DNA of 64,000 nucleotides from Chiloscyllium plagiosum (Eukaryota). The first letter of the stretch is position 1; each line of letters starts with the position of its first letter. Location: assembly GCF_004010195.1 (NCBI RefSeq), contig NC_057753.1, forward strand, positions 15,013,345 through 15,077,344. The letters are read 5' to 3'. Made by a program: the position numbers and the translations under genes. The notes below the pieces were generated by a model. It searched no databases, was not told where the DNA came from, and worked only from the letters and a program-made list of their open reading frames with translations. Shown one piece after another: positions 142-55,661 of the stretch.

Positions 142-459
142 ATGAAAATTGGGCGCTAAGACTAGTGAATGGAGAAAGCCGCTGTGATGGCCGAGTTGAA
201 GTTTACTCTCATGGAAGCTGGGGCGGAGTGCAGGACACCGTGTGGGATCAGAATGTTGCCAACGTTGTCTGCAGACAGCTGGGATGCGGTTATGCCTCAG
301 AAATATATAATTCTTCAAAGTACGGGGAGAGTGATGGTGGTTCGTGGGTACATGTTGTCCAATGTCATGGACATGAATCACAGCTCCAGGACTGCAGGAT
401 CTCCAACACATTGAATTCGTCTGACATCGAAGGCAGTAGCATAGGGGTCCTCTGTTCAG
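142..459 (+). CDS. Gene A exon, SRCR domain (paralog of B SRCR4); 6 Cys, lacks the C2/C7 pair
   Basis: ttttgcag|AT...TCAG|gtaagc, 318 nt; LRLVNGESRCDGRVEV..W..VVCRQLGCG..C..C..GVLCS. Confidence 0.93.
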
Positions 460-673
460 GTAAGCAGACTCTTCACATTTAAACCAGCTCAGATACATTA
501 AGACAAATATTCATCTGCTAAGTAAATTGAGGATGTACACCACTTGCTTGTCAGTGTCACTCAAACTATTTATTCATCGTTCGGATATCAGCAGACCTGA
601 GGTGGGCGGCGGGTGCAGATGGATGAATATGAGAAATTGACACCATTGTGTTGTGAGATACAAGCATTACGTG

Positions 674-838
674 GCAGGTCAGGTGAATTGACTATGCTAA
701 ATTGCGCAGAGTGTTATTTGCATTAGTCAGAGGGAAATGGGTCTGGGTGGGTTAAACGTCGGAGGGTTGGTGTGGACTGGTTGGTCCAAAGGGCCACTTT
801 CCACAATGTAGGGAATCTAATCTTATCTAATCTAATCT
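674..838 (+). mobile_element. HE1/V-SINE, 3' half
   Basis: End of V-domain (GCAGGTCAGGTGAATTG..ATGCTAAATTG), GGGCC..TTTCCAC 3' end and (TCTAA)n tail. Confidence 0.8.
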
Positions 839-842
839 GAAG

Positions 843-1163
843 GGGCGGCAGGCTGGGACAGTGGATAGCACTGCTGCCTCACAGCGCCAGAAACCCGGGT
901 TCAATTCCCGCCTCAGGGAACTGTCTGAGTGGAGTTTGCACATTCTCCCCGTTTCTGCGTGAGTTTCCTCCGGGTGCTCCGATTTCCTCTCACAGTCCAA
1001 AGATATGCAGTATAGGTGAATTAGCCATGTTAAATTGCCTGTAGTGTTAGGTGAAGGGGTAAATGTAGGGGAATGACTGTGGGTGGGTTGCTCTTCAGAG
1101 GGTCGGTGTGGACTTGTTGGGCCGAAGGGCCTGTTTCCACACTCTGAGAAATCTAATCTAATC
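843..1163 (+). mobile_element. Full-length tRNA-derived HE1/V-SINE
   Basis: A box (CAGTGGATAGCA), B box (GGTTCAATTCC), V-domain GGAGTTTGCACATTCTCCCCG..GGGTGCTCCG, CR1-like 3' end with TCTAA repeats. Confidence 0.9.
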
Positions 1164-1214
1164 AGTAATCTAATTACAGTTTCTTAACCCAAAAGTACAG
1201 TTGACACACGTTCA

Positions 1215-1960
1215 CAAATTATACTTTTAATGGTAAGGTCCAGGGGATTGTTGCCAGACAATGAGACCTCGGTGTGCAGACTCGAAGTGCATTGAAAATG
1301 GAGGCATGGAGAGTCAGTGCAGTGAAGAAGGTGATTTGTACTCTTACATTCAATGATCCGTGCCACATAATACAAGGGTTCTAAAGTCATGCTGTGGCTG
1401 TACATTGGTTGGCCACTTTTGGAATTATGTGGATCATTCTGGCCACCCTTTTAGAAGAACAATGCTGGGAAACTTGAAAGAATTCAGAAAAGATTTGCAG
1501 TGATGTTAGCAGAGTTGGAAGGACTGACTTATATGGAGAAGATGAACAGACTGGGGCATTTTTGCCTGGATGGTCGGACGCTGAAGGGAGACCTGACAGA
1601 AGTATATTATATCAGGAGGGGCATGCATAAGGTGAATAGACAAGGCATTGTCCCCAGGATAGTGAAATCCGAATCTGGAGGGCAGAGGTTAAAAGTAAGG
1701 CGAAAAGATTTCTAATGGAACTGAGGGACTATGTTTGTCACAAAAGAGGTTGTACATATGAAATATCTTGACAGTGAGGTGTTGGAGGATAGTACAGTTA
1801 CAACATTTAAAAGGCATCTGGATTTGTGAATAAATAGGAAGGGTTTAGAGATATGTGTGCGGAATGTTGTCAAATAGGAGTGGATTAATTTAGAATACGT
1901 GATTGACATGGAGGAGTTGGACTGAAGGGTTTGTTTCTGTGCTGGACATCTCTAGGACTC
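1215..1960 (+). mobile_element. CR1/HER1 LINE 3' fragment
   Basis: Decayed ORF2 C-terminus (LEGLTYMEKMNRLGHFCLDGRTLKGDLTEVY) and 3' UTR. Confidence 0.85.
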
Positions 1961-2689
1961 CATTACTTGAAATGACCGCATTTCTTTCAATTAGTCGAGC
2001 TTTTTATCTTCTCTGAGAAACTTTTGATCTTGTGCAGCATTGCAGAGACTGAAAGCGCAGTTTGAATTTCATAGAAATTGAACGAGAGATGGATTCCATA
2101 CAAAGCAAGTGTCTTGAGATGTTTCACATGCGAAGTCGCCGCACTGGAATTATATAATATTTTGGGAGTCGTTGTGCGTTATGTATCTCGGAATGGTGAT
2201 GAGACCCTGAAGGAACGCTTTCATGCTCATTGAAATGTCGAGGCAATGGCTTCTTGGTGATTGTGTGTAAAGTACTCATCTCGAATTACAACCGGGGACA
2301 TTGGAACAACATTGGAATGCTGTGCGGTAGATATAAGCAACTGTGTGACTTGTGATCAATCAGAAAAGCAGTTTTCAAGCAGTGAGCAGGTCCTCTCGTG
2401 TCAGGTCCAGCTCACAAGTTGTCAAAAATTCCATTGTGCAGAATAAATTACAAACAGGTGTTATGCTGTTGACCTGATGGAAGCTTCACTTTTCCTCTAT
2501 AAAGATCATAAAATGGTTCGTTAGAAGCCGAAGACAGTGTTTTAATGGCGCACAAGTTTATTCTCAAATTGCAAGAAGCATGATTTAGACCAGAGCAGAA
2601 AACCGTGTGCAGTTAAGAAATCCACATCAGAGGATGCATTTGACAGTAATGGAGACAATGCAGGGGGCAACGTATGAGAGATTTTCTTG

Positions 2690-3130
2690 AGATGAACAAC
2701 ATTTAGCTATGTAGACAACTTGGCCAGATTTGGATTCATTTCCTTTGAACAGAGTCGACTGAGTATGGGCAAGATTGAGGTGTATAATAAGCAAGAAGGA
2801 ATCTTTCCCCTATGTTATGCAATTGCTTACCTTGCGGCATAGAGTTCAGGTGATGGACAGAAGGTTCAGAGGGACCTGAGGATATTCTTTTTTATCCACG
2901 TGGGGCGGGGGAGTAGTCTGGAACTCATTGCCTGTAAATGTGGTAGAGGCAGAAACGTTAGTGAAATCTAAGATAGATTTAGATGTGTACTTATAATGCG
3001 AAGGAGTTAAGGACGAACCCAAGTGCTGGGAAATGAGATTAAAATATTTTGGAGCTTGTTTTTGACAGAAACAGAATTGGTGGGCCGAAGGTTCTTTCTC
3101 TGTGCTGAAGACTTCTTAAATCCGTGATTC
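2690..3130 (+). mobile_element. CR1 LINE 3' fragment, degenerate
   Basis: Similar to the CR1 ORF2 end and the GGGCCGAAGG 3' UTR motif. Confidence 0.65.
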
Positions 3131-3711
3131 TGTGAATTAGTTCTGGACCTTTGTATCTAAGTACACGTGATAATAACATGAAATGACTTTTCGTCCCCTT
3201 TCAGTATTTACACTTCTACAACTACTCAAAGTGCTATTGCTGTCATGCTAATATATATGTTGTCTTTCAGTTATATTCTCGTAAGGTATAGTATTCTCAT
3301 GTGCGCTGATGAATGAAAGCTGAGACGGTATTTATATTGGACAAACGTACAGTTATGTGCACTATAAAATAGGTTGAGAATTAGACAAAGTAACGCGTGG
3401 ACAGACATAAATGGAGTGACAGGAAGAGAAAGCACAAATGCAACTGTTTGCAAAATATTTCTCGGAATGTTCAATATAGAAAGGGAAACTGAACCTGGCA
3501 GTACCAGGTGCAATAAGATATTTTGAAACATTTATGTGCTGTACATTCTTGCTAAAAGATTACACTTGATCGATTAATTTTGTAAGAAATTATGTTTCAG
3601 CACAATAAGTATTTCTCATGAGAACATTTAAAACGCTCTTTCCTGTACCTTTTCACTATGTTGTCCTGAGTGATGAAGGGAATGTGCATTAAATGTGTAA
3701 TTTTTTCACAG

Positions 3712-4029
3712 ATCACTTTCAGTTAAGGCTGTCAGATGGTGGAAGTCCTTGTGCTGGTCGAGTGGAGATTTACTACAATGGAATATGGGGCTCAGTTTGT
3801 GATGATTCATGGGATGTGGTAGACGCTGACGTCGTTTGTAAACAACTGGGTTGTGGAAAAGCACTGGATATGACACTCCCTTCCTCCTCTGGACCGGGCT
3901 CAGGCCACATTTGGTGGAAGGACGTGAAGTGTTTTGGAAACGAATCATTTCTCTGGGAATGTCCTTCAGTCCCATTGGGTCACCAAGACGACTGTTCTCA
4001 TAAAGAGGATGTGAGAATTATGTGCTCGG
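3712..4029 (+). CDS. Gene A exon, canonical 8-Cys SRCR domain (paralog of B SRCR5)
   Basis: ttttcacag|AT...TCGG|gtgagg, 318 nt; [22 protein letters not shown]...[12 protein letters not shown]. Confidence 0.95.
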
Positions 4030-5094
4030 GTGAGGCCATTCTTCAATGCTTTTACTTTGCTCGAATGTTGTAGGTGAGACGTCATGCTGACATATGTTCA
4101 CTGAATTCGAAGGAATGTAGAGCAGCGGCAGTAATTTAAAGAAACGATCTCTGACACTTACATGTACACAAAAAGTGAAAGAACAATTCGTTTCTCTAAT
4201 CTAACTTGCTTTTCTGTCAGTTTTTTTCACCTTCTATTGATACAAGACGCGTTTGTCATGAAAAGTGTCATTTTTGATCTGTTGTCACCACTCCAAGAGG
4301 ATGCCAATATTGTCCTGATAGTCATAAAAGGTTTATTAAAAATTAATTCCAAATTTATGATCTTTACTTTTGTATCGATCCACCAGAAATATGAGACCTG
4401 TTCGTGTGTCTATCGAACTATTTGTGACTCGAAAATGAAGGAGTGACTTTTTTTCTTTATGTTTCCGAGCAGACTTCACTGTATCAGACACAGCTCCTGT
4501 ACAATTGTGTCAGACCTGTACTGCCTGTTTATTACTGTGCACTTGCGGTTTTCATGATTTTTCAGAACAGTAAAAATATTCCGTAATTTGCTTCCAACTG
4601 AGCAGTTTGAAACTTCCCTGGTGATACAAAATTAAAATTGATTGCATATATATCTATATATATATATAATTGAACAGCCATGATATCAGAACCCGTTCCA
4701 GTGGATCATCACTTCTGAAAAGTGGACAATTTACTTTTAACACAGGCTTTCTGTTTTCTGTCAGTTTCTGCTTCTCGACCATTTCGGGTTCTCAAACAGT
4801 TCGCCAGATTCTAGTCGTGTCTTGGTCAAGTCCTTCTAAACTCCATGCACGATGCACATTTGGCTCATTCCTTTTTTCATTGCAATATGTGTCATGAAGA
4901 AAACTGAACACAACGATCCGCGGATGCAGCGGGACCTGAAGATTTGTCTGTGCTTTCTCTCTTCACAGATTCTGTTGAGTTTCTCCAGCAATTCCCTTTG
5001 TTCATATCATGCATCCTGCTCGTTTCGGCAATCACAGGACACACCAGAGATATGAACAATCTAACAATCTGGATATATGTTATTGTTTGAACAG

Positions 5095-5412
5095 GACACA
5101 AGGAGCTGCGGCTGGTGAATGGAAAGCATCGCTGTGAGGGAAGAGTGGAGGTGTTCTACAATGGGACCTGGGGAACAGTGTGTTCAGACACATTGGATTC
5201 ACACGTTGCCAAAGTGATTTGTAAACAGCTTCACTGTGGTGCGTTCCAGTATGTTGAATACGACGCTCAATCATTCGGAGCAGGAACGGGAACTATTTGG
5301 CTCGATGAGATGGAGTGTCTGTCACACGAGTCGACACTGTGGCAATGTCACACAGATCCGTGGGGTCAACACGACTGTCAACACCGGGAAGATGCTGGTG
5401 TAGTTTGTTCAG
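5095..5412 (+). CDS. Gene A exon, 8-Cys SRCR domain (paralog of B SRCR6)
   Basis: gaacag|GA...TCAG|gtaaca, 318 nt; LRLVNGKHRCEGRVEVFYNGTWGTVCS...CQHREDAGVVCS. Confidence 0.95.
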
Positions 5413-5495
5413 GTAACATGACAAGCCTTCTCAATGTTCGGGTCATACTCAAACATGAATTCCCAATAGACTGAGCATCTTTCTCCTTCCACCAG

Positions 5496-5552
5496 AGAGC
5501 AAAGTGACAAAGGAGCAGTCCCTCAGTTCAACTTACTGCCATCAACAATTAG
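5496..5552 (+). CDS. Gene A inter-domain linker exon (ESKVTKEQSLSSTYCHQQL)
   Basis: ccttccaccag|AG...TTAG|gtgcgt, 57 nt, phase 1/1; same size and sites as 47405-47461. Confidence 0.8.
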
Positions 5553-5633
5553 GTGCGTCTTCTTTCTCTATGAGCGAATTCTTGGAGATTCTGCTTTGCA
5601 CTGCATTCAATAATAATCAGTTCTGTACCACAG

Positions 5634-5951
5634 ATACGCAAGACAGTGTGCTCTTGCATGGAGGAAGCAGCAACTGTTCTGGAAGAGTGGAAATCATGTG
5701 CGATAAACGCTGGGGAACGTTGTGTGGCAATTCCTGGGATATAACTGATGCTAATGTTGTCTGCAGAGAGCTGGGATGTGGCTTCGCTCGATCAGCCCGA
5801 GATGAGGCCGCTCTCTCCCAGGAGAAAGATGTTATCTGGCAGAATGATGTGAAGTGTAAGGGAAGAGAATTCTCTCTGTTGGACTGTCTCTCCGCAGCTC
5901 CAGCTAAAAGCAAGTGTAACCACAAGGAAATTGCCAGTGTAATGTGTTCTG
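5634..5951 (+). CDS. Gene A exon, membrane-proximal SRCR domain (9 Cys)
   Basis: ccacag|AT...TCTG|gtaaga, 318 nt; GGSSNCSGRVEIMCDKRWGTLCGNSWD...CNHKEIASVMCS. Confidence 0.94.
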
Positions 5952-6061
5952 GTAAGATTGATGCTGACTGACGTGCGGCATTAATGTTAAAAATCAGGGC
6001 AACTATTTGATTTGCTAAGTTACATTGCCCTTTATAATTATTCGTACTTTCTGTTCCACAG

Positions 6062-6103
6062 GATCCGAGTTGGTGACGGTCTCCCCTTCACCTCCACCTG
6101 CGG
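6062..6103 (+). CDS. Gene A Pro/Ser-rich stalk exon (GSELVTVSPSPPPA)
   Basis: ttccacag|GA...GCGG|gtattt, 42 nt; paralogous to 47985-48026. Confidence 0.8.
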
Positions 6104-6287
6104 GTATTTATGACTGATATTATTATTAGTATTTGTGTTCGCGTTACTTTCCTGAAAAGTGACATTGATGCTGTTGACATTTTCACGATTTGGATGCGAG
6201 TGTCATTGTTTCCTTAATGATGATTATTTACAATTTTCCATGGCAGACCTTAACTATGCTAAACCCATTTGTACTCCCTCCTTTAAG

Positions 6288-6404
6288 GACAGGAAAGTCC
6301 GTCTATTTCCATGCCAGTTGTCGTCTGTTCATCTTTGGGAGTCTTGTTAATCTGTGAGTTAATCGCATTACTGGTGGTCATGCAAAGAAAATTGCAAATG
6401 AAAG
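6288..6404 (+). CDS. Gene A transmembrane exon (GQESPSISMPVVVCSSLGVLLICELIALLVVMQRKLQMK)
   Basis: ctcctttaag|GA...AAAG|gtaagc, 117 nt; hydrophobic helix then basic stop-transfer residues; not in the ORF track. Confidence 0.88.
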
Positions 6405-7759
6405 GTAAGCATCATATCTACCAACTGAGATAACACTGCGTCACTTTCACTGTTGCATATGTTCTCGGGGCTGTACGTTTTTATTGCACTTTTCGAGCAT
6501 TTGACTGAGATGGTCACGATTGTACGGCAGGTCTTGGCTGTTTGTTTTCTTCGAGGGACTTTGCCCAATGAAACGCTAAGTTTTAATAAACACTCAGATA
6601 AATGCATCAAATCTGTAAATAGCAGTTAAAAGAATATTCTAACTGTGTGAAGTATGCATCAAGTCGCTCAATATATTTGGAGAGAAACTGAATTAACGTA
6701 TAATGTGGAGTTGCTACAGTCATTATCAGTGGGAAAGAAATATAATGACTGCACTTTCTTATCTTTCAGTTAACATATACATGACATTCCAGAGCAGGTC
6801 AATGACGGCAGCAATATGTCTCCATTTCATTGAGTTATTTGCAGACTGCCTCTAAATATTTCTTCATTAGTTACTATTATTTATGGTTCTTGAGTGTCTG
6901 GGTGCTGCTACCACAACCCAAGATCATTGAGAGGATTAAGGGTCCTTTTAAGGGAACTTCCAGTTAGGCAACAATTGGCTTCCCTTGACTGAGCAAATGA
7001 TACTTCTGTACTTTGCACAATAATTTAAAAGCGTTTGCTTGGGAACCATTTTCCACGAGTTGGCAATGACAATCAACACTAATAACAATCATTTTCTATC
7101 CTTTCACATGCTCTTAATTTTCCTTTACATATAGCCATAAAAACTAGGCACTTAGTCTATCACGATCAAAGTCATCAAGGTGCACCTTATTTCATTCGTC
7201 TCACGTTTTGGTTTTTAACTAATTGTCATAATTCTGCAATTGTTTAATGAAAGTAGTCCAATTCTAACAACATTATTATCAACCTTGTTTGTTAGCACCA
7301 CGGTATGTTGAACATTAATTTGTAATCTCCTCAATGGTATCAAGTTTTTTAAAAAAAATATAGGTTATTAGCATTTTCGTTTTTTCATTGCATGAAAGAG
7401 TTTCATTTTCTGCACTCAACATTTTCACTCACATTTACGAGCTGAGAATTTTCTTGAATAGATGTTTGAATCAGCAAAATTAGAACAAAATACCCAAATT
7501 TATACCAACAAGAACGTTTGGCTCTTTCTGTTTAACATACTAGGTTCGGGAACTGATGTGACATGGAAATTAATCATGGCCTGTTCACTTGTTTTTCCAA
7601 TATGTTCTCCCTTCAGCGATCAGTTAATGTTGTGTGAAGATTCTAATCTACAGCATTGTGTGAACTCGTTCTTCTCTCCCCTGGTTCTTCAGATATAAAC
7701 ACCTTGTTTCTGCGAGTGTTCAGCTACAAATGCTGACCAGTCTATTGTTTATTCTACAG

Positions 7760-7867
7760 AACTTTACCTTGGTGGCAGAGGCTCACGCCTTGGTTTGTAC
7801 CAAGGAATTTATGAAGAAATTGAGAATATTCCCCCTTGCAAGAGGACGGATCACAAACATGGACCAG
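7760..7867 (+). CDS. Gene A cytoplasmic exon 1 (ELYLGGRGSRLGLYQGIYEEIENIPPCKRTDHKHGP)
   Basis: ttctacag|AA...CCAG|gtatat, 108 nt, in frame; YEEI motif; paralogous to 49604-49681. Confidence 0.85.
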
Positions 7868-9134: not shown

Positions 9135-9248
9135 TAATTTATGCTTCCATTGACTCACTCAATCGCATTGAATACTACACCAGTCACAACTTGACTGACT
9201 ATAATCCCGGATCTGAAAATCTTGAGGTGAAATCTAACAGCATTCCAG
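9135..9248 (+). CDS. Gene A cytoplasmic exon 2 (VIYASIDSLNRIEYYTSHNLTDYNPGSENLEVKSNSIP)
   Basis: tttttag|TA...CCAG|gtgtgt, 114 nt; same size as 51260-51373. Confidence 0.83.
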
Positions 9249-10436: not shown

Positions 10437-10568
10437 GTCGAATTCGTGGTGAGTATGACGATGTTGAGACTGAAGATGCAGAATGTCATGATGGAAAGTT
10501 ACAATTGGACAGTGATCCTGATGAACCACTCACACTTACAGATGATGACAGTGGTCTTTGTTCACTCG
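10437..10568 (+). CDS. Gene A cytoplasmic exon 3 (GRIRGEYDDVETEDAECHDGKLQLDSDPDEPLTLTDDDSGLCSL)
   Basis: ctctccag|GT...CTCG|gtcagt, 132 nt; acidic, YDDV motif; paralogous to 52664-52792. Confidence 0.83.
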
Positions 10569-12343: not shown

Positions 12344-12354
12344 GTAGATTTTAG
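12344..12354 (+). CDS. Gene A probable terminal coding segment (G-R-F-stop), start of last exon
   Basis: tttatcatttcag|GT AGA TTT TAG. The same acceptor and an in-frame TAG occur in gene B (55127-55137), and both are followed by conserved AATAAA sites. Alternative acceptors exist at 11253 and 11675. Confidence 0.45.
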
Positions 12355-12564
12355 GAGCTATTTTATCATGGGACGTCCTAATATTGCGAGAAGTCGCCGA
12401 CTATCGTTTTGAATCTGCAAAATATTTTTCTCAATACAAGGTGCAACTGGTTGTAATTCAGTAGCATTTACTTTGGCATTGAAATGTATATATTTACATA
12501 TATATATCCTTTTGAAATGCATTTGAATAATTGCATGTTGTGTGTTTAATGAGTTAAAAGTGGG

Positions 12565-12886
12565 AATAAAGAGAGTGCATCGAAGTTTTTTTTTTATGTG
12601 TGCATATATTACGTAATTCATTTCTCAGTGTAGATTTATGAACTCACAATAGTGGACGATGGTCCTGTGGTTTGTCAATGAGGTATTGAGGAAAGTCCAT
12701 GTGAAATTGCTTTGCTTTCTCATACCGCATGAAGGAGGCTTTTAAACTTGGCAAGCCAAAGAATTCTATGAAGTGCTGTTTTGCTGTTTTTTGAATGAAA
12801 TGTTCTCTCCATTAACATATCGTCCATGAACTGGGAATATTTCTGAAAGTGATGTTACAAAATGTAGAATACAATTCATCAATAAA
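12565..12886 (+). terminator. Gene A candidate polyadenylation signals (AATAAA at 12565-12570 and 12881-12886)
   Basis: Both hexamers are conserved at the homologous gene B positions (55340, 55656); the distal one is followed by GT-rich sequence. Confidence 0.55.
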
Positions 12887-16254: not shown

Positions 16255-16670
16255 GTTTCTCTCAGTCATTTGTTCCAAACTTCAGCAACATAGTAGCACC
16301 GTTGATGGATTTACTAAAGACGAACACAAAGTTTCGGTGAACAGAACAATGCCAGGAGGCATTTGTGATTTTAAAAGCAAGATTAACCACTGCCCAAATT
16401 TTATTTACACCAACATTTTTGAAACCTTTCAAAGTTGCAATCTATCCTGGCAATATAGAAGTTGGAGCTGTAATGCTGCAGGAAGATGATGATGGAATTG
16501 AACAGCCAATTGGCTCAATTTTTAAAAACAAAACTCAATACTCACCAAAGAAAATACTCCATCATGAGAAAAGATTTTTTGAGTTTGTTACTGGCCTGAC
16601 AACATTTTAATATTTAACTGAAGAACAATGCTGTTGTGTACACGGGCCACATTACTCTCACATTGTTTGA
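16255..16670 (+). mobile_element. Gypsy LTR retrotransposon pol fragment (RT connection/RNase H)
   Basis: FVPNFSNIVAPLMDLLKTNTKFRWTEQCQEAFVILKARLTTAQILFTPTFLKPFKVAI..VGAVMLQEDDDGIEQPI. Confidence 0.85.
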
Positions 16671-30006: not shown

Positions 30007-30052
30007 ATGCTTGCACCCCTCCTAAAGTTGCTTCTTCTACAGCTATTGAACT
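30007..30052 (+). CDS. Gene B start/signal-peptide exon (MLAPLLKLLLLQLLN)
   Basis: ACGATGC start, Leu-rich h-region, strong phase-1 donor T|gtgagt. The upstream acceptor tttttcag| at 29978 implies a further 5' UTR exon. Confidence 0.75.
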
Positions 30053-36726: not shown

Positions 36727-36759
36727 ACAGTCTTGTCGACACGCAAGTTAATAAGACAG
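36727..36759 (+). CDS. Gene B mini-exon (YSLVDTQVNKT): signal-peptide end and mature N-terminus
   Basis: ctctatttcag|AC...ACAG|gtaatt, 33 nt, phase 1/1; bridges the signal exon to SRCR1 in frame. Confidence 0.68.
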
Positions 36760-38099: not shown

Positions 38100-38414
38100 A
38101 GTCGGTGAAGCTGAGATTTGAGAATGGCAACAGTCCTTGCGCCGGCAGAGTGGGAATTCATTACAAAGGACTGTGGGGGACTATGTATGATACTAACTGG
38201 GACCTGTTGGATGCTACTGTTGTATGTCGGGAGCTGGACTGTGGGACTGCAGTCGCTGCCCCACGTTTTTCTCATTTTGGACCAGGATCTGGACCCATTA
38301 TGACTGGAAATGTTCACTGCAGTGGGACTGAACGCGCTCTGCGTGACTGTCCGTCTGAAACATGGCGTCACTACAAAAAACCACACTCTAGTGATGCTAG
38401 TGTCATCTGTTCAG
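38100..38414 (+). CDS. Gene B SRCR1 (6 Cys, lacks C2/C7)
   Basis: tttttcag|AG...TCAG|gtagaa, 315 nt; LRFENGNSPCAGRVGIHYKGLWGTMYDTNWD...DASVICS. Confidence 0.93.
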
Positions 38415-39181: not shown

Positions 39182-39490
39182 AGCAAGTCATGTTAGTACC
39201 TGAAAACTCCAAGTGCTTTGGCAGACTGGAGGTTCAGTTCGGAGACACCTGGAAAACAGTGTGTGGTCTTGACTGGGATTTAAAAAACTCTAACGTGGTC
39301 TGTGCACAGCTTCATTGTGGAGTGGCCGTGTCTGTTTCAAGCTCTGCTCACTCTAGAAACAGTACTGTGCTTGCAGGTACTAAGGTCTTTAAGTGTACGG
39401 GCAGTGAGACTCAACTAGGGAGGTGCCTTCGGTCTTCAGACACTCACCATGATTGCAGTGAACATAACAATGTCACTCTGACATGTTCCG
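39182..39490 (+). CDS. Gene B SRCR2
   Basis: cttttcag|AG...TCCG|gtgagt, 309 nt; CFGRLEVQFGDTWKTVCGLDWD...CSEHNNVTLTCS. Confidence 0.93.
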
Positions 39491-41264: not shown

Positions 41265-41579
41265 GAAACCATGGACCCCGATTGGTTGGTGGGGTGAACA
41301 GATGCTCTGGGCGAGTGGAGGTCCTGCATGGAGAGCAGTGGGGATCTCTGTGTGGCATTTACTTTGATTCACAAGTCGCCAGTGTGGTCTGTGAGCACCT
41401 TCAGTGCGGGTCTGTAAAGTCGGTACCCAGAGATGATCGATTTGGGAGGGGAGCCGGACAAACGTGGAAGGAAAAGTACAAATGTCGTGGAAACGAGAGA
41501 CGATTGTGGGACTGTGCAGTTTCACGCAGTGGACGTTTTAACTGTTCCCACGGAAACGTGGCCAATGTCATCTGCTCGG
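41265..41579 (+). CDS. Gene B SRCR3
   Basis: aacacag|GA...TCGG|gtgtgt, 315 nt (alternative in-phase donor after 41588, gtaggt); PRLVGGVNRCSGRVEVLHGEQWGSLC...CSHGNVANVICS. Confidence 0.93.
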
Positions 41580-42194
41580 GTGTGTCCGGTAGGTCTGGCA
41601 GATGTCATTCCAGAAGGGAAATAATTGACCAGATGAGTTATTAGTAGAATTGCTGTTGGTTTCAGTGTCACCGTTATTCAGTCGAAATTTCAGTTCGAGG
41701 TTATTCACTGAGTTTGAACTCCACCAGCTGCCATTCTGGAATGGAGGACAGTGACATTCTTTCTGCACCATCACATTCTGTCGTTTTATTAATCAAGGTG
41801 CCATGCTTGATTTAACACAACGGTGTTCTGAGATCTGAAAGCTGACTTTTCCAAAGTTAATTTGTGTTAGATCCGGTTTGTTTCCACGTTTGTGAACATT
41901 TCATGAACAACATCAGAGATGAAAATTAATTATTTTCATCTCTGCATGTATCTGATTCATTCTTCAAACGTCAAATCTCTCTGTCTTCAACGATATTTCC
42001 AGACTCACTGGGTTCTGCGAGAACATTCTGTTAGTGCTTCTGAGGCGGTGAGTGAATCCTTATTGGCATTAAATCCTCGGATACATTGGGTGCATGTTGG
42101 AGGTAGTTTGCAACGTTAGAACAGAGATGAAAAACAAAGAAATTGAGAGCATTGTTTGCTATTCTGACAGATGTTTCCTGTGATTAAAAAAAAG

Positions 42195-43829: not shown

Positions 43830-44147
43830 ACGAGAATTCGTCACCAAGACTAGTTAATGGTGGAAGCAGATGCGATGGCCGAGTTGAGGTCTACTACAAT
43901 GGAAGCTGGGGCCGAGTGCAAGACACCCTGTGGGACTTGAATAATGCTCACGTTGTCTGCAGACAGCTGGGTTGCGGTTATGCCTTCGAAACGTATAACA
44001 CGTCGAAGTATGAGGCGAGTGCTCAATGTGGGAGGGTGTACGGTGTCCAGTGTCACGGGCAGGAACCGCAGCTCCAGGACTGCAGAATCTCCAGCTCACT
44101 GAATACATCGGTCTGTGACAGCAGTGATGTTGGTGTCCTCTGTTCAG
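43830..44147 (+). CDS. Gene B SRCR4
   Basis: gttgcag|AC...TCAG|gtgagt, 318 nt; paralog of 142-459. Confidence 0.94.
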
Positions 44148-45215: not shown

Positions 45216-45689
45216 TCGCCTTGTTTCATCCAGAACAGCCAACACTTGGCGATGTTTTGGACAAGTCAGTGGGATTGCTGTTGATCTGTACCACGTGAAG
45301 ACTGGAGTGGTGTCGCCCCTGTTTATGTTTTGAAATGTATTATTCTGCTGTACGTCTCAGTTATAAATGTAGAGTTAATGGAAATATGAGACAGGCTTTT
45401 AATCGGACGTAGCCAATGTTATGGTTGCAGTAAAATGACAGTCAATGGGCCAAGACGTGTATTCAGATATTCATAGTAATTATCTTTTGTAACATTTCAT
45501 TTCTTCGCATTCTTGCTAAAATTAGTCATTTAACTTATCAATGCTGTCAGGTGTTCTGTTTCATTATTTTATTCACATCTCAAAAGACAATGTATAACTC
45601 TTTCTGACCTAAATCTATACGTGATGTGGGACTGAATGAAGAGGGGAGGGACAATTGAAGGTATAATCGTCTGTGTTTTTGTTTGACAG

Positions 45690-46007
45690 AACACATGCAG
45701 TTAAGGCTGACAGATGGAGGAACCCGTTGCGCTGGTCGATTGGAAATTTACTACAAAGGGACATGGGGCTCAGTGTGTGATGACTCCTGGGATGTGATAG
45801 ACGCTGAAGTAGTTTGTCAGCAACTGGGTTGTGGAAATGCGCTGAATATGACATCTCATTTCTCCTTCGGACCGGGCTCAGGTCCCGTTTGGTTGAAAGA
45901 TGTGAAGTGTTCTGGAAATGAATCATTTCTCTGGGAATGTCCGTCAGCACCATTGGGTCACCAAGACGATTGTTCTCATAAGGAGGACGTGAGAATTATA
46001 TGCTCAG
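45690..46007 (+). CDS. Gene B SRCR5 (canonical 8 Cys)
   Basis: ttgacag|AA...TCAG|gtgagg, 318 nt; paralog of 3712-4029. Confidence 0.95.
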
Positions 46008-47005: not shown

Positions 47006-47323
47006 AGCACAAGGAGATGCGGCTGGTGAATGGAAAACATCGCTGTGAAGGGAGAGTGGAGGTGTTCTACAATGGGACTTGGGGAACAGTATGTTCAGAA
47101 AATCTGTATGGACAAAGTGTTGAAGTGATATGTAAGCACTTCGACTGTGGTGACCTTCTGTTCATTGATTATGACAGTCAATCATTCGGAGCAGGAAAAG
47201 GACCTACGTGGCTCGATGGGATGGAGTGTCTGTCACACAAAACGGCCGTGCAGCAATGTCAGACGGATCCCTGGGGTCAATGCAGTTCTCAAAACTGGGC
47301 AAATCTAGGCGTCATTTGTTCAG
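47006..47323 (+). CDS. Gene B SRCR6
   Basis: gaacag|AG...TCAG|gtaaca, 318 nt; paralog of 5095-5412. Confidence 0.94.
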
Positions 47324-47404
47324 GTAACACGACAAATCTCAATATTTGGGTGTCATTTCAAACACTGATTTCCAATAGAGTCAGCACGTTTCTCTTCTTG
47401 ACAG

Positions 47405-47461
47405 AGCGTAATGTGAAGAAGGAGCAGCCCCTCAATTCAAACCCTTGCCCTCAACAGTCAG
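47405..47461 (+). CDS. Gene B linker exon (ERNVKKEQPLNSNPCPQQS)
   Basis: cttgacag|AG...TCAG|gtgcgt, 57 nt. Confidence 0.8.
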
Positions 47462-47547
47462 GTGCGTCCTCTTAATGAGTTTGTCAAATCTCGGAATGAT
47501 GTGCCTGCTTTGCACTTTTTTCAATATTTGTCACTTTTACACTACAG

Positions 47548-47865
47548 ATTCGCAACTCACTGTGCGCCTGGACGGAGGAGGCAGCAACTGTTCCGGGAAA
47601 GTGGAGATGATGTGCAATAAACGCTGGGGCACGTTTTGCGGTGATTCTTGGGATATAACTGATGCCAATGTTGTCTGTAGACAGCTGGGATGTGGCTTCG
47701 CTCTACTGGCCCGAGGAGGGCCCGCTATCTCCCAGGGTAAAGGTGTTATTTGGCAGAATGGTGTGAAGTGCAAGGGAAGTGAATCCTTCCTTTCCGACTG
47801 TCTCTCCACAGCACGAGGGCAAAGCACATGTAATCACAAGGAAGTTGCCAGTGTTTTCTGCTCTG
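47548..47865 (+). CDS. Gene B SRCR7, membrane-proximal (9 Cys)
   Basis: actacag|AT...TCTG|gtaagt, 318 nt; paralog of 5634-5951. Confidence 0.94.
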
Positions 47866-47984
47866 GTAAGTACGATGTTGACTGGTGCCGACCAGTGGTC
47901 ATTCATGCTGCAAATTAGTATCATCATTTAGACTTACTAAATTAAGTTTCACGTTCATGAATATTTGTAAACTTTCTTTAACAG

Positions 47985-48026
47985 AATCCGAGTTGTTGGC
48001 GACTTTCCCTTCACCTCCACCAGCTG
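47985..48026 (+). CDS. Gene B stalk exon (ESELLATFPSPPPA)
   Basis: ttaacag|AA...GCTG|gtattt, 42 nt. Confidence 0.8.
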
Positions 48027-48210
48027 GTATTTATGACTGATACTATTAGTAATATTTGTGTTAGTGTCACACTTCTGACTAGTGAAATTGTTCCTGTTGT
48101 TTTTTTCACGATTTTGAAGCTTATATCAGTATTGTCTTATTCTCGAATTCTTTATAATTATACACGCAGCTCGTATCTACGCTGAATTTCTCTGAAATCT
48201 CTCCTTTAAG

Positions 48211-48327
48211 GACAGGAAAAACAATCAATTTCCGTATCTGGCGTCGCCTGCCTAACCTTGGGAATCCTGTTAGTCTGTGAATTGATCGCACTGCTGGTGA
48301 TAATGCAGAAAAAAATACAAATGAAAG
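48211..48327 (+). CDS. Gene B transmembrane exon (GQEKQSISVSGVACLTLGILLVCELIALLVIMQKKIQMK)
   Basis: ctcctttaag|GA...AAAG|gtgagc, 117 nt. Confidence 0.88.
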
Positions 48328-49603
48328 GTGAGCCTCACGCCTACCGACTGAGATAACGCTGATGAAGTTTTATTGTTCCATATGATGTGGGGTTGGACGT
48401 TGTTATTGCCCTTGTCCAACTCTTGGCCTCGATGGCGACTTTGGGAGGCCTTCTCTGGCTATTTGCTTTCTTCAAGAGTCTTTACCCTTTGAAAAGTCAG
48501 ATTTAAAAAGGCAATAAAAATAAAATACTTCAACAATGTATATAAGAGTTAAAATACGATATAAATTCCATCAAATATTTATTAAGTTTCTGAACATCAA
48601 TACAAAGCAATGGAATTGAACGTTAGCGTGGAGTTACCCCAAATCATTATCAATGAGAAATAAATGTGAAGAGTGAATCACTCTTGTCTTTCAGTTTACA
48701 TGTACATGATACTCCAGAACAAGTTACCGATAGTTGCATTGTGTCTTGAAGTTGCATTGAGACGTTTGCCCAGTGTACTAGTTATTTAATCATCAGTTAG
48801 TTTTAGGGTTCATCACTTCATGAGCGCTGTATCAGAACCCAAGGTCAGTGTAAACATTAAGTGTATCTTTATAGGTTATTCAGTCATCCAACAACTGGGT
48901 GCCCGTGAGTGATGAGATGAAACCTGTTCATTTTTTTCAGTAGATTCAAAGCATTTACCTGAGAGTAATTTTCCAGTTGATGGCCAGAACAATTCACACG
49001 ACTAACAAAATACATTAGTTCGCATATTTTTGTATGCTTTCTTAATTCTAGTTTACACGAGCAAACCGAATTTACACTTAGTTTGTATTAACCAAAGTTA
49101 ATACAGTTGACCTTATTTCACTCTCACATATTTTTGTGTCCAATTAATTACAATAACTATACACGTGTCTGATTACAGCATCTACGTTCTAACAAAAGTA
49201 CCATTATCTAATCATGGTCCTTTTGTTTTTGTTAAGTTTATCTGGGTCATGGTCAACCACATTTTTTTTGAAATTCGTCTATAAATTATCAACGTGTTCT
49301 CCATGTTCATTAAATTGGGAAATTTTAAGTTCTGCAGTCAGTGTTTTTGCTTCACATGCAAGATTGCGAGCTGAGAACTGTCTTGAATAAACTTTGTAAA
49401 ATGCGAACAGAACTGGCCATGCACATTCCAACATGCAGCATTTTCCTCTGGATATTCAAAACAATGAGTATCAGTCGTCAGTCCATGTTGTGCCAAGATT
49501 CTCTTCTCTAGGTCTGCATTAACTCCAATTGCTTCTCACATATGTAGCTTCTCTGGTGCGTGTTCAGGGACAAATACTGACATGTCTATCCTTCCTTCAG
49601 CAG

Positions 49604-49681
49604 ACCTTCACACTGGTGCTGGAGGCTCAAATGTTGGATTATACCAAGTAATTTATGAAGAAATTGATAATACTCCACCTG
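49604..49681 (+). CDS. Gene B cytoplasmic exon 1 (DLHTGAGGSNVGLYQVIYEEIDNTPP)
   Basis: cttcagcag|AC (NAGNAG acceptor)...CCTG|gtaaga, 78 nt; the donor position used in gene A is AT here. Confidence 0.75.
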
Positions 49682-51259
49682 GTAAGAAAAGAATCAGAAA
49701 CATGGACCAGATATGTATTTTCTTACTGCATAGTCAGTCGCGATTGCATAAGGATGGGTTTGTTTCAATCTCCACTTTTCAATGATCAGTGAACTGAATG
49801 ATCACATCTAGTTATCCTCGAAGTGCACTCGTGTGAAGGAAGTTATCATTGCGAATGAATTTTAGTTGGTGTTGAATGAGACGTAGTTTTGACAAGTCTC
49901 ACTGTCCTTCATTCCTGATGGATTATTTCTGACATTTTTGCACACATGAATGGAACCACCCTTTCCAATTCGATTCTGGTTGCACTCTGATTCCTTCAGA
50001 AATCTGAACAATAAATCCATTCACTGACTGAGTTTATAATTTTAAAATCTTTGTCACGAATGTTGGTTATGCACCTAATAGTGCAAGTGAAACTGAAAAA
50101 TTGAAATGCAAACAATTACAGGAATGTAAGTGCAAACAGTTCTTTGTTCCATCGTGTCTCAATTCGTTCTAATAACTTGTGCCAAAGAATAATAATAAAG
50201 CGAGCTGTTTTACTTTCATAACTTCTCTTGACTGATAATGTCAGAACAGCGGATACATAGATATGTAGCAAAAGGATTGTCACGTTTCATGTTGACTAAC
50301 ATTGGAAGCAGACCACTGGAGGATTGCCTTCTAAACCTGGTGATGGGGAATGCGAAACATCAGATGGAAAATAGAATAAAGGCAACAACGGGGAATTTTG
50401 ATGTTGACATATAAAAATGGGAAGAATTTTACATGATCAGAGTTGAAATGATTTACTAATATTTCTATATCAGAGCACCACAGAAAATAACATTAAATGA
50501 AAGCATTCTCAAAGTATATCGCACAACAATAATCAGAAGTATTTAAAGGACATTTAATATACTCAAGAAATGTGAATTACGTCATAGAAATAATAACATT
50601 TTTCATGTCAAATCAGACAACACTGAAAGAAGTTGTAAGGGAAACTGAAGGCATTCAATTTACTTTTTCATATATAGTGCAAAAATGACAGAGATTAGAA
50701 ATTAAATCATCAAACGTACTCTGTGTGTGAAAGTGTTTGCTCGATGTGAAAACTGATGTTTATTTCTCATTTCTGATCACAGTGATTTGGCATTTCCCTT
50801 TACCTTAAAGTAACGAAATTTGTGTTTGATTGCTTTCACATAATATGTTCCATTGACAGTCTTCTGTCTATTGCGACAAAGACGATAAAATAATAATGTG
50901 TTCTATTTTAACGCTCCTCCTAAGTCTATTAAGTATAAAATCAGAGTCTATGAGACTGAGAGATATAGGATTAGGATTAAATCGTTTGAACCATTCAGTC
51001 TGCTCTGCTCTTCGATCATGGCCGATAAGCTTCTCAAATGCAATGTCAAGCCTTCTTCCTGGTGGCTTTTATTCCCTTACTCATTAAGAACCTGCCTATC
51101 TCTGTCTTAAAGACACTCCATGACTTGTCCACTACAGACCTCTGTATCAATAGGTTCCACCCTCTGGCCGACAAAAAAAATCAGCTCAGTTCAGTTCCAG
51201 AGTGGTGTGCCTTCACGAGGACATTGAATTGGACATTAATTCTTCATTTTTGTTTTTAG

Positions 51260-51373
51260 CAATATCCACTTCCATTGGCTCACTCAATCACATCGAATAC
51301 TACATTAGCCACAACTTGAGTGACAGTAATTTGGAATCAGAATATCCTGAGATGAACTCCAACAGTAGTCCAG
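51260..51373 (+). CDS. Gene B cytoplasmic exon 2 (AISTSIGSLNHIEYYISHNLSDSNLESEYPEMNSNSSP)
   Basis: tttttag|CA...CCAG|gtgtgt, 114 nt. Confidence 0.83.
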
Positions 51374-51639
51374 GTGTGTAAGTGTTCACAATCTGTCAGT
51401 TCACACTTGTCTTTCAATCTATCCGCTATCCAAAGCTAAAGATGTCAATGTTCACAGTGATATAGAATGACACGTCACCAATGGTTGTTTCATGAGCATT
51501 GCCAGTGAAAAGGAAAGTTGCTTGTTTTGAGTTACAGAGAAATGGCGCATTGAGTACGTCCGTGCGAAAAGAAAAATCATCTAGTATTCTCATCCCATTT
51601 ACCTGCACTTTTCCCGTAGTCTTGTATGGCTTGGCATCA

Positions 51640-51792
51640 CTTTATCTGAATGGGTGCATGAATAGGAAAGGATTAGATATTCGTAGGGTTAATGTTGGCA
51701 AATGGGGCCAGTCGTTTTTAAGATGTCTGGTCAGCACGGACACGTTGGACTGAAGGATCTATTTCCATGCTTTTAATTCTATGACTTTATGT
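51640..51792 (+). mobile_element. CR1/HER1 extreme 3' end
   Basis: ATGAATAGGAAAGGATTAGA..GGACTGAAGGATCTATTTCC; absent at the homologous gene A position. Confidence 0.75.
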
Positions 51793-52663
51793 ACAAGTAA
51801 ATATTTCTTAAGTGCTACGAGTGTTTGTGCCTTTACCACCGTTAGAGGCATGTAGTTCCAGATTCACACTAGCCTCCGTTCAACTCATTTCCCTCACTGA
51901 CTCTTTAATTTTTCTTGCTCTAACCTTAGTCCACCTTCCGTAATATATATGACCCCCCTTCTTTAATATTGCCAGCATAGAGTAAAGTTCATTTCTTGCT
52001 GCCCACATCTGTTCGTCGTCAGTTCATAATGCTTCTCATTCATATTCACCCCCGCAAAGTCCTGAAGTCCATTGAAAAAGAAAGTAGCCCAGAAACAGCA
52101 GTCGGCCACTCATCCCCGAGGGCATGTTCTTGCGTTCAATGAGATTACTCCTGGCTGCTGTGTGTCCTACATCCAATCACCCGCGTTTGGCCCACATTTC
52201 TTAATAGCTTTCATTAATAATAATGTACCGCAGATTTAAAATTGGCAACTGATCTGATATCAACTGCAGCTTTTATTCATTGATACATCTCTCCTGAAGG
52301 CTCTGGCATTAATTCTCTGAATGTTCCCCTAGATCCTAGAATGGTTTCATGATTGAAGTGGTTAATCTTTAACTATCATGTCTTATTCTGTACATATCGT
52401 TAATATTTTAGTCAGATCACTCTTTACCTTCTAATTTCTAGAAGAAGACGTCTTAAATTTCATAGTCTTTTCTCATACTGTGACTCCTGACGTACACTGA
52501 AGTATCAAACTCATCGAATGTCTCTTTACAGAACAAATTTTACATTCCAACACGAATCTACTTTTCCACTGTTAAGTTCCTTTTTCCAGAACGAACCTCC
52601 TTTTCCAACTCTCAGTGTTGTGTGTTACAATTTGTGTCAGTGATAGTCACCTTTCCCTCAAAG

Positions 52664-52792
52664 GTCCACTCCTTGATTATGACCATGTTGAGACAGAAGA
52701 CATTGAATCTCAGGATGACCATTTACAACTAGACAGTGATTCTGATGAACCCCTCACACTGACAACTACTGGCGATGGTCTTTGTGCACATG
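52664..52792 (+). CDS. Gene B cytoplasmic exon 3 (GPLLDYDHVETEDIESQDDHLQLDSDSDEPLTLTTTGDGLCAH)
   Basis: ccctcaaag|GT...CATG|gtgagt, 129 nt. Confidence 0.8.
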
Positions 52793-55126
52793 GTGAGTTG
52801 AATTACAGATAATTGCTCATTAACTAACACTTTGCATGTTCGCACTGTCTTGGTTCCGTTCCATTTTTTGATTGATGTTACATCTGCTGTAAATTTAAGA
52901 ACAACATTCAATGCTATCATAACGTTATCTTCACAAATTGTCATTGTGAAAGCTTGGATTACTGGAGAGGGGTCTTCATTTCAAGGCAATGAAAAATGAT
53001 TTTTAAAAATGAAATACGTAGATATTGACACGACACTGCGTTTTGTCAACTCTTTGAATATTCGATCCTAACTTCACCCAAATCGTAAGGTTACATGTCT
53101 CGAAAACTTCTCTTTTAATGAATCACCATCTAGCTGGATAGAAAATATGCAAGCGGGTCCTATGTGTTTGATGTTTTCAATGTTGGCATTCTAGGTGTGC
53201 ACTGGAATGTCAAACCGTGAGGACCATTTCTTGCAAAACACAAGGAAAGGTGTGTTTGATATTTTTATGGGGAATTCTAGGAGGAATGATTCTCTCTGAT
53301 TTGAACATCATAAAAGCTATGGGTGCCCTTGCGACTAAAATTCAGACTTCCCAACCTGCTATTTATTCATTTCAAAACGTCCAATTAGCCGTTGGTAGAA
53401 CCTTACTTCAATGTTCCTTCCATTCACCAGTGATCAGCTTTCATGTTTAGTTTCTTTCCTCATCCACACTGAGGTCATTTCTGTGAGCCATTAATTAACT
53501 GTTGTCTGAACCGTCATCCAAAGTGTGCCACTCATCACACTGCCAACCATGAAGGATCTCTGGAACTTTTGCGACGACTCTGCTTGATCTCCTATAGATG
53601 CTGACAGTCCAGCTGGGTTGTGCTGCAATTTCTGCTTTTGATCCTGATTTCCAGAATCCGCAGCTGCTTTAGCGTTTTGCTTCTCCCTTAACACTTTTCC
53701 ATCTTTATCTTCACTACATGTAAACTCGTCAGCTAAATCTCTGCTAAATATGGAGTATGATAGTGTATTTCAATTCCTACACTTGCAGTTCCCAAACATT
53801 ACAATACTAAGATATCACTGATCAAAGTCACAAATGAAATTGTAGGTGATTTTGAAATTGATCGATAATCATTGCTCATCGTTATTATCCTGACCAAGAA
53901 ATAAAAGAATGTGGCACAAAATTTAGCAGAGAAACACATGAGTTCAGAGTGCATTTGAGGAAAATATTCATTACCCAGAGGCTGGTGCTTTTCTGGAATG
54001 CAGTAGTTGAGAGAATAGTTGAGGTGTGATATCTCAGAGGTTTTAAAATATGCTTGCATGCATACATGAAGTCTCGTAACATTCAAGGCTTTGTGTAGGA
54101 ACGTGAGACGATTAAAGGTATTAGCGTAGTTTTGATTCGATAGACCTCTACTGCACTGTACCATTCTTTGGTTCCAAGTTACAGCATTTGACATGGCCAT
54201 CTAATACTCCTGATCACCACACCAGCATTGTTCAGTTTCCTAGACAGTACTAAAAGGAGCGTAGTATTACTTGAAACAGTCCAGTCCAGTGCATCGCATG
54301 GGTCTGATGCCATCTGAGAAAATCCGACCTTTTCATTCTGATAACTTGCATATCCTTTGTGCCTTCAGTGTGGCTATGCAGTGAAATTGTGACAGAAAAT
54401 TTCACAAGAAATACATCAAACTGATAAGAGATACATTTTTTTCTCATGAGTTCGAACTTTTCTGATGCAGAGGACAGAATGGGATGCCCTGGCGTTCTGT
54501 CGAACTGTGATATATTTGAAGCATTACATAATCGTCACAGAAAGCACACTTTTTAAAAAGTCAGTTAAAGCAAAGGTTGCTTGTGATGGGGATTTTTCGA
54601 ATTAATCATAAATAATCAACATGTAATGACGCCACAGAGATCATTGAGGTTGCTTTACCAGAGTGAAATAAGCAAAATACTTTTCGCTACGTTACACCAC
54701 CCAACGTGGAAATACATACATGGCCAAAGATGTACTTTAGGAAATGTCCTGTCAGCGTTAATTGAGATTAAGGAACAGTCAGCATGCGCACAGCAAATCA
54801 CCACAAATCCGAAGTGATAACTTTTGTGTAACATGTTCAGTGATAATGCTGATTGCAGAATAAATATTGCCCATGGGGTCATTTGCTGCGCACTTGTCTA
54901 TTACATGCTGTCTTTTTCATCCAGCTGAACACACATATAGATACGCACCTCAATGTTCCCCTTTATAATATGGACCTTCATCATTCCGATAATGCTGAGG
55001 CAGCCTTAGACTTCTTTCTCTAGAGTGAGAAGCGTCAGCTGCTGATTGATACATGCATGAACTAGGAATAGAGAACACACTTGAAATGACCTTGAGTTGA
55101 CTCACATACTTTCTTTATCATTTCAG

Positions 55127-55137
55127 GTAAATGTTAG
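55127..55137 (+). CDS. Gene B probable terminal coding segment (G-K-C-stop)
   Basis: tttatcatttcag|GT AAA TGT TAG, homologous to 12344-12354; alternative acceptor at 54471. Confidence 0.45.
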
Positions 55138-55339
55138 AGTCTGTTTCAGCATGGGACCTCCCGAGGCAGATAATGTTACGAGAAGTCATCTACTATCATT
55201 TCGCAAATGCTGAATGGTTTTCTTAATATCAGCTTTACTTGATTGTAATTCATTTGCATTTATTTTGTATTGAATTGACCACATTACTGTTCTCTCTTTT
55301 TGATCTGATTGCGCGTGTTGTAATGAGTTAAAAGTGGAA

Positions 55340-55661
55340 AATAAACGGATTGCAGCCAGATCATTTTCGTGTGAGGATTAATCACATGATCCATTTCTCT
55401 GCATGGCTTCATAGGCTCTCGACTGGGGGCGATGTGCTTATCATTTATCATTGAGGGATTTTAAGGAATTCCATGTGTAATTGCTTTACATTTTCATCGC
55501 CTATGACGGAATAGTTAAAATGTGCCGAGCCAAATAATTGTCCGAACTGCTATTTCGCTATATAACGAATGAATATCTTCGATTCCTAGCCGTATTCTCG
55601 ATGAACTTCGATTTTTGCTGTTATTGACAATGTAGAGTGTAATTTGAATCTCATAAATAAA
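55340..55661 (+). terminator. Gene B candidate polyadenylation signals (AATAAA at 55340-55345 and 55656-55661)
   Basis: Positionally conserved with the gene A hexamers; GT-rich downstream. Confidence 0.55.

Follow-up and report, generated by a model that had tools for sequence, protein, structure and literature searches.

Which receptors are encoded by the two blocks of SRCR exons in a 64-kb stretch of the Chiloscyllium plagiosum genome (G000:C44:15013345-15077344, forward strand; hereafter the window), and to which family do they belong? The original prediction placed two paralogous WC1/CD163-like genes at positions 142..55661, with one SRCR domain per phase-1 exon and a transmembrane (TM) exon, and regarded them as part of a tandem multigene family. 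Judged from their sequence, these genes, A and B, are CD163-family members with a WC1/SCART1-type tail, and they are not WC1, SCART1, CD163A or DMBT1 in the strict sense. As shark-expanded CD163/WC1/SCART1 paralogues, they are probably leukocyte pattern-recognition co-receptors in which a Src-phosphorylated YEEI motif would amplify antigen-receptor signalling.

In a six-frame scan of the window, SRCR motifs, YEEI and YD(D/H)VE all lie on the + strand and form two colinear blocks, which share ~64-80% DNA identity extending into the 3' untranslated region (UTR). Within the window, the first exon of gene A begins at position 142, and 55656-55661 is an AATAAA downstream of the gene B stop. Splice-site mapping gave a complete gene B of 16 exons, from ATG 30007 to stop 55137, encoding 948 aa with no internal stop. 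A leader and a mini-exon are followed by seven SRCR exons, a stalk, a TM exon, three tail exons and a terminal exon, and a 57-nt spacer exon sits ahead of the last SRCR exon. Gene A occupies 11 exons in the window (616 aa, partial), is open to its terminal stop, represents about the 3' two-thirds of the gene and matches the layout of gene B from domain 4 onward. All introns (15/15 in B, 10/10 in A) are GT-AG and in phase 1, and each SRCR domain has one exon to itself, so that the predicted gene structure stands. Part of gene A domain 3 was found 2 kb upstream of the window, interrupted by an N gap; the leader and domains 1-2 were not found in the DNA upstream of the window, where this assembly gap lies. 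PF00530 scored above its cut-off in both SRCR domains scanned, and the domains, with 6-8 Cys and one exon each, are of group B type; domains 1 and 4 lack Cys2 and Cys7 (6 Cys). Neither gene model contains a CUB or ZP exon. Domain 4 of gene B (43830-44147) has two extra Cys, at positions 66 and 95, which are absent from the paralogues and could form a new disulfide; its single-sequence fold had a mean pLDDT of 40.5, too low for use.

To classify the domains, we used letters after PMC2906472 (cited from the available part of its text, as are PMC2681482, PMC8356672, PMC9276791, PMC10529500 and PMC13186322), which were given to reference domains by position and trees. The trees were built on 105-column alignments with FastTree (253 domains, from 25 proteins and genomic exons) and IQ-TREE (98 of these, with SH-aLRT/UFBoot support), and an extended FastTree of 245 domains added SCART1 of the Tasmanian devil, CD163A of the marmot, CD163b of the lemur and WC1 of the sheep. 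Raw single-domain BLAST and profile scores were rejected as a classifier because slow generic domains (d, DMBT1) attract everything. Based on the trees, the domain order of genes A and B is a, b/c, b/c, n, d, e, spacer, d'. Domain d4 joins the 6-Cys n domains of bird, turtle, coelacanth and fish (FastTree 0.99; IQ-TREE 99.1/96; extended 0.83), and domain 5 of devil SCART1 falls in the same clade in the extended tree. Similarly, d6 groups with e (0.94; 95.9/98; extended 0.91), d2 and d3 lie in the b+c clade (0.84; 99.7/96; extended b/c 0.98), and d1 groups with a-type domains (0.86; 97.8/90; 0.78 with the a domain of sheep WC1). In the FastTree analyses, d7 groups with d' (0.93; extended 0.87) and d5 with d (0.87; extended 0.84). 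The spacer before the last domain, 20-27 aa in sharks and 13-25 aa elsewhere with one of 45, is common to shark, fish, coelacanth, platypus, marsupials and ruminant WC1, and is missing in honeyguide, turtle and one coelacanth model. The a-b-c-n-d-e-d' order recurs in tarpon, caecilian, pintail and others in a representative search, which named 20 representatives, jawless fishes not among them.

The d-e-d' block was then treated as a unit (26 rows, 327 columns; six proteins were left out as outgroups or for lack of an intact block). With the root assumed, all bony-vertebrate members fall on one side (98.1/100) and the sharks outside, which makes the shark genes co-orthologues of WC1, SCART1 and CD163A/b together and implies that the arrays arose separately. 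The WC1/CD163-like label is right as to CD163-family membership and the WC1/CD163c-type tail, and too narrow as to descent. In the same tree, skate and sawshark proteins fall into one clade with the C44/C42 group (100/100), and C13 lies apart from them. In the trees, mammalian DMBT1 pairs with another shark locus, on C28; a tree constrained to place the window and C42 domains in a clade with DMBT1 was worse by 64.7 log units (p-AU 0.004; 55-row quick tree). Thus, DMBT1 membership is refuted at family level by the trees and this test, as had been expected. The SRCR exons at C28:43.10-43.17 Mb are a candidate shark DMBT1-type gene. Additionally, many bird and crocodilian 'DMBT1-like' proteins (e.g. 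P0001, P0031) have 11-16 SRCR domains, a TM segment and a short tail without a tyrosine motif, and shark domains at C32:3.08-3.17 Mb group with alligator ones as a further SRCR receptor family.

The tails carry the second line of evidence. Across six frames of the 64 kb, [IV]YEE[IL] and YD[DH][VIA]E occur twice each, every time inside a tail exon, in agreement with the predicted Y-x3-YEEI followed by an acidic YDDVE (A) or YDHVE (B). That description needs amending: a further 114-nt exon between the YEEI and YDD exons, encoding S-I-x-S-L-N-x-I-E-Y-Y, had been overlooked, and gene A is incomplete, starting beyond the gap. The predicted tails are ~118-129 aa long, with six tyrosines in B and eight in A. 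In gene B, the donor used by A and by the related gene g1 after the YEEI exon is lost, together with a 1-nt deletion there; two in-frame donors, 49681 (consensus) and 49714, are present, and either keeps the frame. In 23/23 compared tails (8 from sharks and skate, 15 from a chosen set of bony vertebrates), the tyrosine of the Y-(E/Q)-E-(I/L) motif is found 22-28 residues after the TM segment. In genes A and B this distance is 25-26 residues, and YEEI fits the Y-(Q/E)-(D/C/E)-(I/L) pattern common to WC1 and CD163c-alpha; WC1 needs phosphorylation of its YEEL (PMC2906472). The shark genes share the middle-exon motif DSLN-x-(I/L)EYYT with the coelacanth and, more loosely, with a lemur-cluster protein, and YDD(V/I/A) comes next in shark, fish, coelacanth, bird and mammal tails. 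When scored with a profile of the 15 bony-vertebrate tails, shuffled sequences matched the shark tails in 0-1 of 500 cases for seven of the eight, and in 6 of 500 for gene B. The representative search yielded 147 further relatives, 43 with a TM segment after the last domain and 27 of these 43 with a tyrosine motif. Two lemur-cluster proteins named M160-like (P0142, P0049) end in WC1-type b-c-d-e-d' domains, a TM segment and a tail with YQEI, PYY and YDD, unlike true CD163b (P0141), and degu P0257 is similar to them; strepsirrhine primates and some rodents may still have WC1-like genes.

The predicted tandem family is also borne out. Within 424 kb around the window, six gene-sized + strand units (g1, g2, A, B, C, D) form a 260-kb cluster; the same 424 kb also contain an orphan tail and an inverted YD exon. 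Of these, g1 is intact, g2 contains stops, C has nine domains with d1-d2 doubled and retains neither the acceptor of the EYY exon nor the tyrosine of YDD, and D is cut by a gap; a leader exon like that of gene B also precedes g1, C and D. Just past the window, at C44:15078789-15080426, a YEEI exon and an incomplete EYY exon stand as orphans: neither a TM nor an SRCR exon was found ahead of them. Five unplaced contigs match gene A at ~94-97% DNA identity and four of them carry domain 5, so that, together with the window, gene A-type copies exceed two alleles. The group extends to another three unplaced contigs and to two decayed copies at C44:3.69-3.84 Mb, and a single, more distantly related gene on C42 carries this tail too. 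In a second array, at C13 59.86-60.45 Mb, six segments were analysed, each with part or all of the cassette; in the DNA covered, the TM exon is present in 6/6 and a P-x-YEEI exon in 4/6, and two further SRCR groups there lie outside the set. A genome search with the P-x-YEEI exon gave seven matches. The C13 array differs in its TM and tail sequence (P-x-YEEI, EYDD then stop) and groups with a manta protein. Among paralogues, dN/dS is 0.27-0.64 per exon class, with dN < dS in every class, and by this measure the paralogues are under purifying selection. Domain 1 is the loosest SRCR domain (dN/dS 0.61), in part owing to g1.

Automated annotation, which had been expected to call these genes 'DMBT1-like' and to miss the signalling part, does so in one case. 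Among Chiloscyllium plagiosum database proteins, P0125 'DMBT1-like' fuses genes B, C and D with pieces of G-protein-coupled receptors (GPCRs) and skips the gene B TM and YEEI exons. P0122 'M130-like' corresponds to g1 and P0127 to the C42 gene, and both models, like P0087, contain TM and tail. The source names of P0125, P0127 and P0087 are of the DMBT1-like type. No gene A model is among the 12 database matches listed (lengths 846-2694), and 'antigen WC1.1-like' is already the database name of fish and coelacanth proteins and of one shark protein.

To look for transcripts, we examined public reads. An exact d7-stalk splice of the gene A type, 5951 -> 6062 with GT-AG, is present in contigs of runs X1 and X2 (two public samples of one study, library type not on record), the only gene A exon joint among 15 of 556 joints listed. 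This joint shows that spliced molecules exist, unless there is an unassembled intron-less copy. The d7-stalk intron is kept in 8/8 genomic d7-stalk pairs found; no retrocopy that could be the source was found among the examined loci, with no open frame longer than 278 aa among 150 SRCR matches. Three X7 pieces end at or near exon ends, and a five-letter overhang at the YDD exon equals the end of the EYY exon. The single-cell run X5, of which ~2 in 100 reads were sampled, gave reads on repeats only and none on A/B exons, a sample too thin for expression, and run X6 yielded no aligned reads. CD163, WC1, scavenger, DMBT1 and SCART are not mentioned in the main texts of PMC10529500 and PMC13558645 or in one PMC10529500 supplement. 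In cod, an m130-like gene, a possible member of this branch, marks a tcrg/tcrd T-cell cluster and innate lymphoid cell-like cells (PMC9276791).

How might such receptors work? WC1 binds Leptospira and is phosphorylated by fyn, blk and lyn (PMC8356672); its SRCR domains bind bacteria, and its Src-kinase-phosphorylated tail tyrosines boost signalling of the gamma-delta T-cell receptor (TCR) (PMC8356672, PMC2906472). We infer a co-receptor role on lymphocytes because the shark genes carry every sequence feature of the WC1 design. By analogy, their diversified SRCR domains would bind microbial surfaces, and co-clustering with an antigen receptor would let Src kinases phosphorylate the tail. Going by SH2 preferences, Src-family SH2 domains would be recruited to pYEEI, and an adaptor, e.g. 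SLP-76 or Nck, to the distal YDD(V/I). The differing number of tyrosines among copies, as in gene C, might tune signal strength. Expression most likely falls to a T-cell or innate-lymphoid subset; the best single candidate, though a tentative one, is the gamma-delta T cell, where a co-receptor role would follow the WC1 example.

Several observations weigh against this interpretation. For the domain classes, d2 and d3 pair with each other and are not separable into b and c; the d1 profile score of gene B is 127 for a and 126 for DMBT1, a 1-bit margin; and musk-deer WC1 domain a falls outside the a clade in the IQ-TREE analysis of 98 domains. The d7 and d5 groupings are weak in IQ-TREE. Raw profile scores of d6 favour d over e, d6 matches human CD163 domain 7 at 118.9 bits and domain 8 at 59.0, and the 55-row quick tree does not settle the e grouping. 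The homology of the tails lies in short motifs, at 6.8-19.9 bits, with 5.6 for an unrelated tyrosine-rich control tail, and the CD163 family also includes the macrophage receptor CD163A. As for expression, the d7-stalk joint could derive from an unassembled intron-less copy, since the X1/X2 library type is unrecorded and introns are covered. The junction check succeeded for one joint of gene A type: no gene B exon joint, TM and tail included, was seen among 15 of 76 joints listed. Moreover, the available portion of the shark blood marker table of PMC13186322 contains no CD163, M130, WC1, DMBT1, SCART1 or 'deleted in malignant' rows, a weak negative because the gene models are fused and the table was available in part.

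The genes could instead be myeloid CD163-family receptors of the macrophage scavenger or pattern-recognition type, like CD163A/b, using the tail for endocytosis or for myeloid Src/Syk signalling. This is the main rival, and we consider it unlikely. The d-e-d' tree leaves room for it, as the sharks are equally related to CD163A/b and to WC1/SCART1, and YEEI fits the Yxx-hydrophobic endocytic motif. Some tonguefish blood markers bear the name 'DMBT1-like' and may belong to this family: two are markers of macrophages and one of T cells (PMC13186322 Table S7). However, CD163A has YQEM/YREM and CD163b has F replacing the tyrosine, both without YEE(I/L) and distal YDD (also PMC2906472), whereas the shark tails keep the WC1/SCART1 set. 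Furthermore, the clade made up of N-terminal domains 1-3/1-6 of CD163A/b (0.99, extended tree) contains no shark domain, and multigene arrays are the WC1/CD163c pattern (PMC2906472).

Two other explanations carry far less weight. In one, birth-and-death turnover of the array would have left the window genes mostly silent or in decay, gene B having been disabled at its YEEI donor; this view draws on the stops in g2, the orphan tail after B, the two decayed copies at C44:3.69-3.84 Mb, the 1-nt deletion and lost donor of gene B, and the database model that skips its TM and YEEI exons. It is improbable given that 16/16 B exons and 11/11 A exons are open with intact sites, that dN < dS holds in every exon class, that a consensus donor restores the gene B frame and that a spliced A-type junction occurs in two runs. 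That the genes encode epithelial or secreted scavenger proteins akin to DMBT1, in line with the automated names of P0125, P0127 and P0087, is hardly credible: gene B domains 1-4 do reach raw BLAST scores against DMBT1 at least as high as against WC1 domains, but CUB/ZP exons are missing, TM and tail are present, the DMBT1 clade is rejected, and another shark locus takes the DMBT1 position.

Returning to lymphocyte co-receptors of the WC1 design, the available part of PMC2906472 follows WC1/CD163c-type receptors no further back than birds and platypus, and the words 'fish', 'zebrafish', 'Xenopus' and 'amphibian' have no occurrence in its text. The full cassette and tail in sharks, skate and manta would move the origin to the jawed-vertebrate common ancestor, the same node as the gamma-delta TCR. 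We found no description of the family in cartilaginous fish in the open-access literature, subscription papers being mostly outside the search. Shark gamma-delta or innate-like lymphocytes have been inferred from Sox13 only (PMC10529500), and these genes are concrete marker candidates for them; the corrected gene models make the cell-type question testable in existing single-cell data. No new mechanism is involved, and automated models already exist.

Exons of genes A and B, in window positions
Gene	Feature	Position	Strand	Remark
A	SRCR d4, n class, 6 Cys	142..459	+	gene's first exon inside window
A	SRCR d5, d class	3712..4029	+	
A	SRCR d6, e class by tree	5095..5412	+	
A	Inter-domain mini-exon, 19 aa	5496..5552	+	between e and d'
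A	SRCR d7, d' class	5634..5951	+	splice 5951 -> 6062 in runs X1, X2
A	Pro/Ser/Thr stalk mini-exon	6062..6103	+	
A	Transmembrane exon	6288..6404	+	
A	Tail exon 1, Y-x3-YEEI	7760..7867	+	
A	Tail exon 2, DSLN-x-IEYY	9135..9248	+	common to coelacanth and other bony vertebrates
A	Acidic tail exon 3, YDDVE	10437..10568	+	X7 piece begins at exon
A	Last exon, 3 codons, stop 12354	12344..12886	+	predicted 3' UTR; AATAAA 12565 and 12881
B	Leader exon, coding part, ATG	30007..30052	+	putative signal peptide
B	33-nt mini-exon	36727..36759	+	ahead of domain 1
B	SRCR d1, a class by tree, 6 Cys	38100..38414	+	
B	SRCR d2, b/c class	39182..39490	+	
B	SRCR d3, b/c class	41265..41588	+	best human CD163 match is domain 5
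B	SRCR d4, n class	43830..44147	+	
B	SRCR d5, d class	45690..46007	+	
B	SRCR d6, e class by tree	47006..47323	+	
B	Inter-domain mini-exon	47405..47461	+	
B	SRCR d7, d' class	47548..47865	+	
B	Stalk mini-exon	47985..48026	+	
B	Transmembrane exon	48211..48327	+	
B	Tail exon 1, Y-x3-YEEI	49604..49681	+	predicted new donor 49681, alternative 49714
B	Tail exon 2, EYY	51260..51373	+	
B	Acidic tail exon 3, YDHVE	52664..52792	+	
B	Last exon, 3 codons, stop 55137	55127..55661	+	predicted 3' UTR; AATAAA 55340 and 55656

Around these exons, window 16341-16610 and 63083-63481 are retroelement remnants, namely an RT-type RNase H domain and a reverse transcriptase fragment. Single-exon GPCR-like genes also lie within the cluster, with a broken copy at window 59494-60247 (-) and long open frames at C44:15146292 (-) and 15159596 (+), and another precedes the C42 family member (C42:12724239). 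We take those of the cluster to be GPR139/142-like; a Pfam scan of two GPCR-like window pieces gave no match. In a synteny search, the EMG1 and FUOM families had no match in the shark genome, and the family of Shadoo (SPRN), a neighbour of human SCART1, matched on C38, beside none of the three loci (C44, C42, C13).

Among known systems, the closest likeness is to CD163c-alpha/SCART1 and to the bird, amphibian and fish 'WC1.1-like' or 'M130-like' proteins, which share the b/c-n-d-e-d' cassette, the 6-Cys n domain and the TM segment; CD163c-alpha/SCART1 and the shark genes both have a proximal Y-E-(D/E)-(I/L) and a distal YDD. In tarpon P0248, both the order of the seven domains and the tail are as in the shark genes. 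In contrast, SCART1 domains 1-2 (m/l) group elsewhere, whereas shark d1 groups with class a; four tail exons follow the TM exon in sharks and two in bovine CD163c-alpha (PMC2906472), and the shark genes are not nested within the SCART1 lineage. With WC1, they share the tandem array, one exon per SRCR domain, separate inter-domain and TM exons and a multi-exon tail (PMC2681482), as well as a first domain, putatively a-type, that is among the most variable, d-e-spacer-d' beside the membrane, YEE(I/L) equally far from the TM segment and YDD(V/A) further down. However, they have seven domains rather than the 11 or 6 of ruminant WC1, include the n domain that WC1 lacks, and show neither the a-b-c-d-e-d-b-c-d-e-d' order nor a clade with mammalian WC1, and their expansion is independent. 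By sequence, their domain order is closer to SCART1 and the bird and fish members than to ruminant WC1. CD163A (M130) and CD163b (M160) resemble them in the b, c, d, e and d' domains and as type I membrane proteins; the h/i/j/k-type N-terminal domains are missing from the shark genes, and n, YEE(I/L) and YDD from CD163A/b. DMBT1 has in common with them group B SRCR domains, one per exon, and the name used by automated annotation, while the shark genes differ in lacking CUB/ZP and the long spacers between domains, in having TM and tail, and in forming a separate clade.

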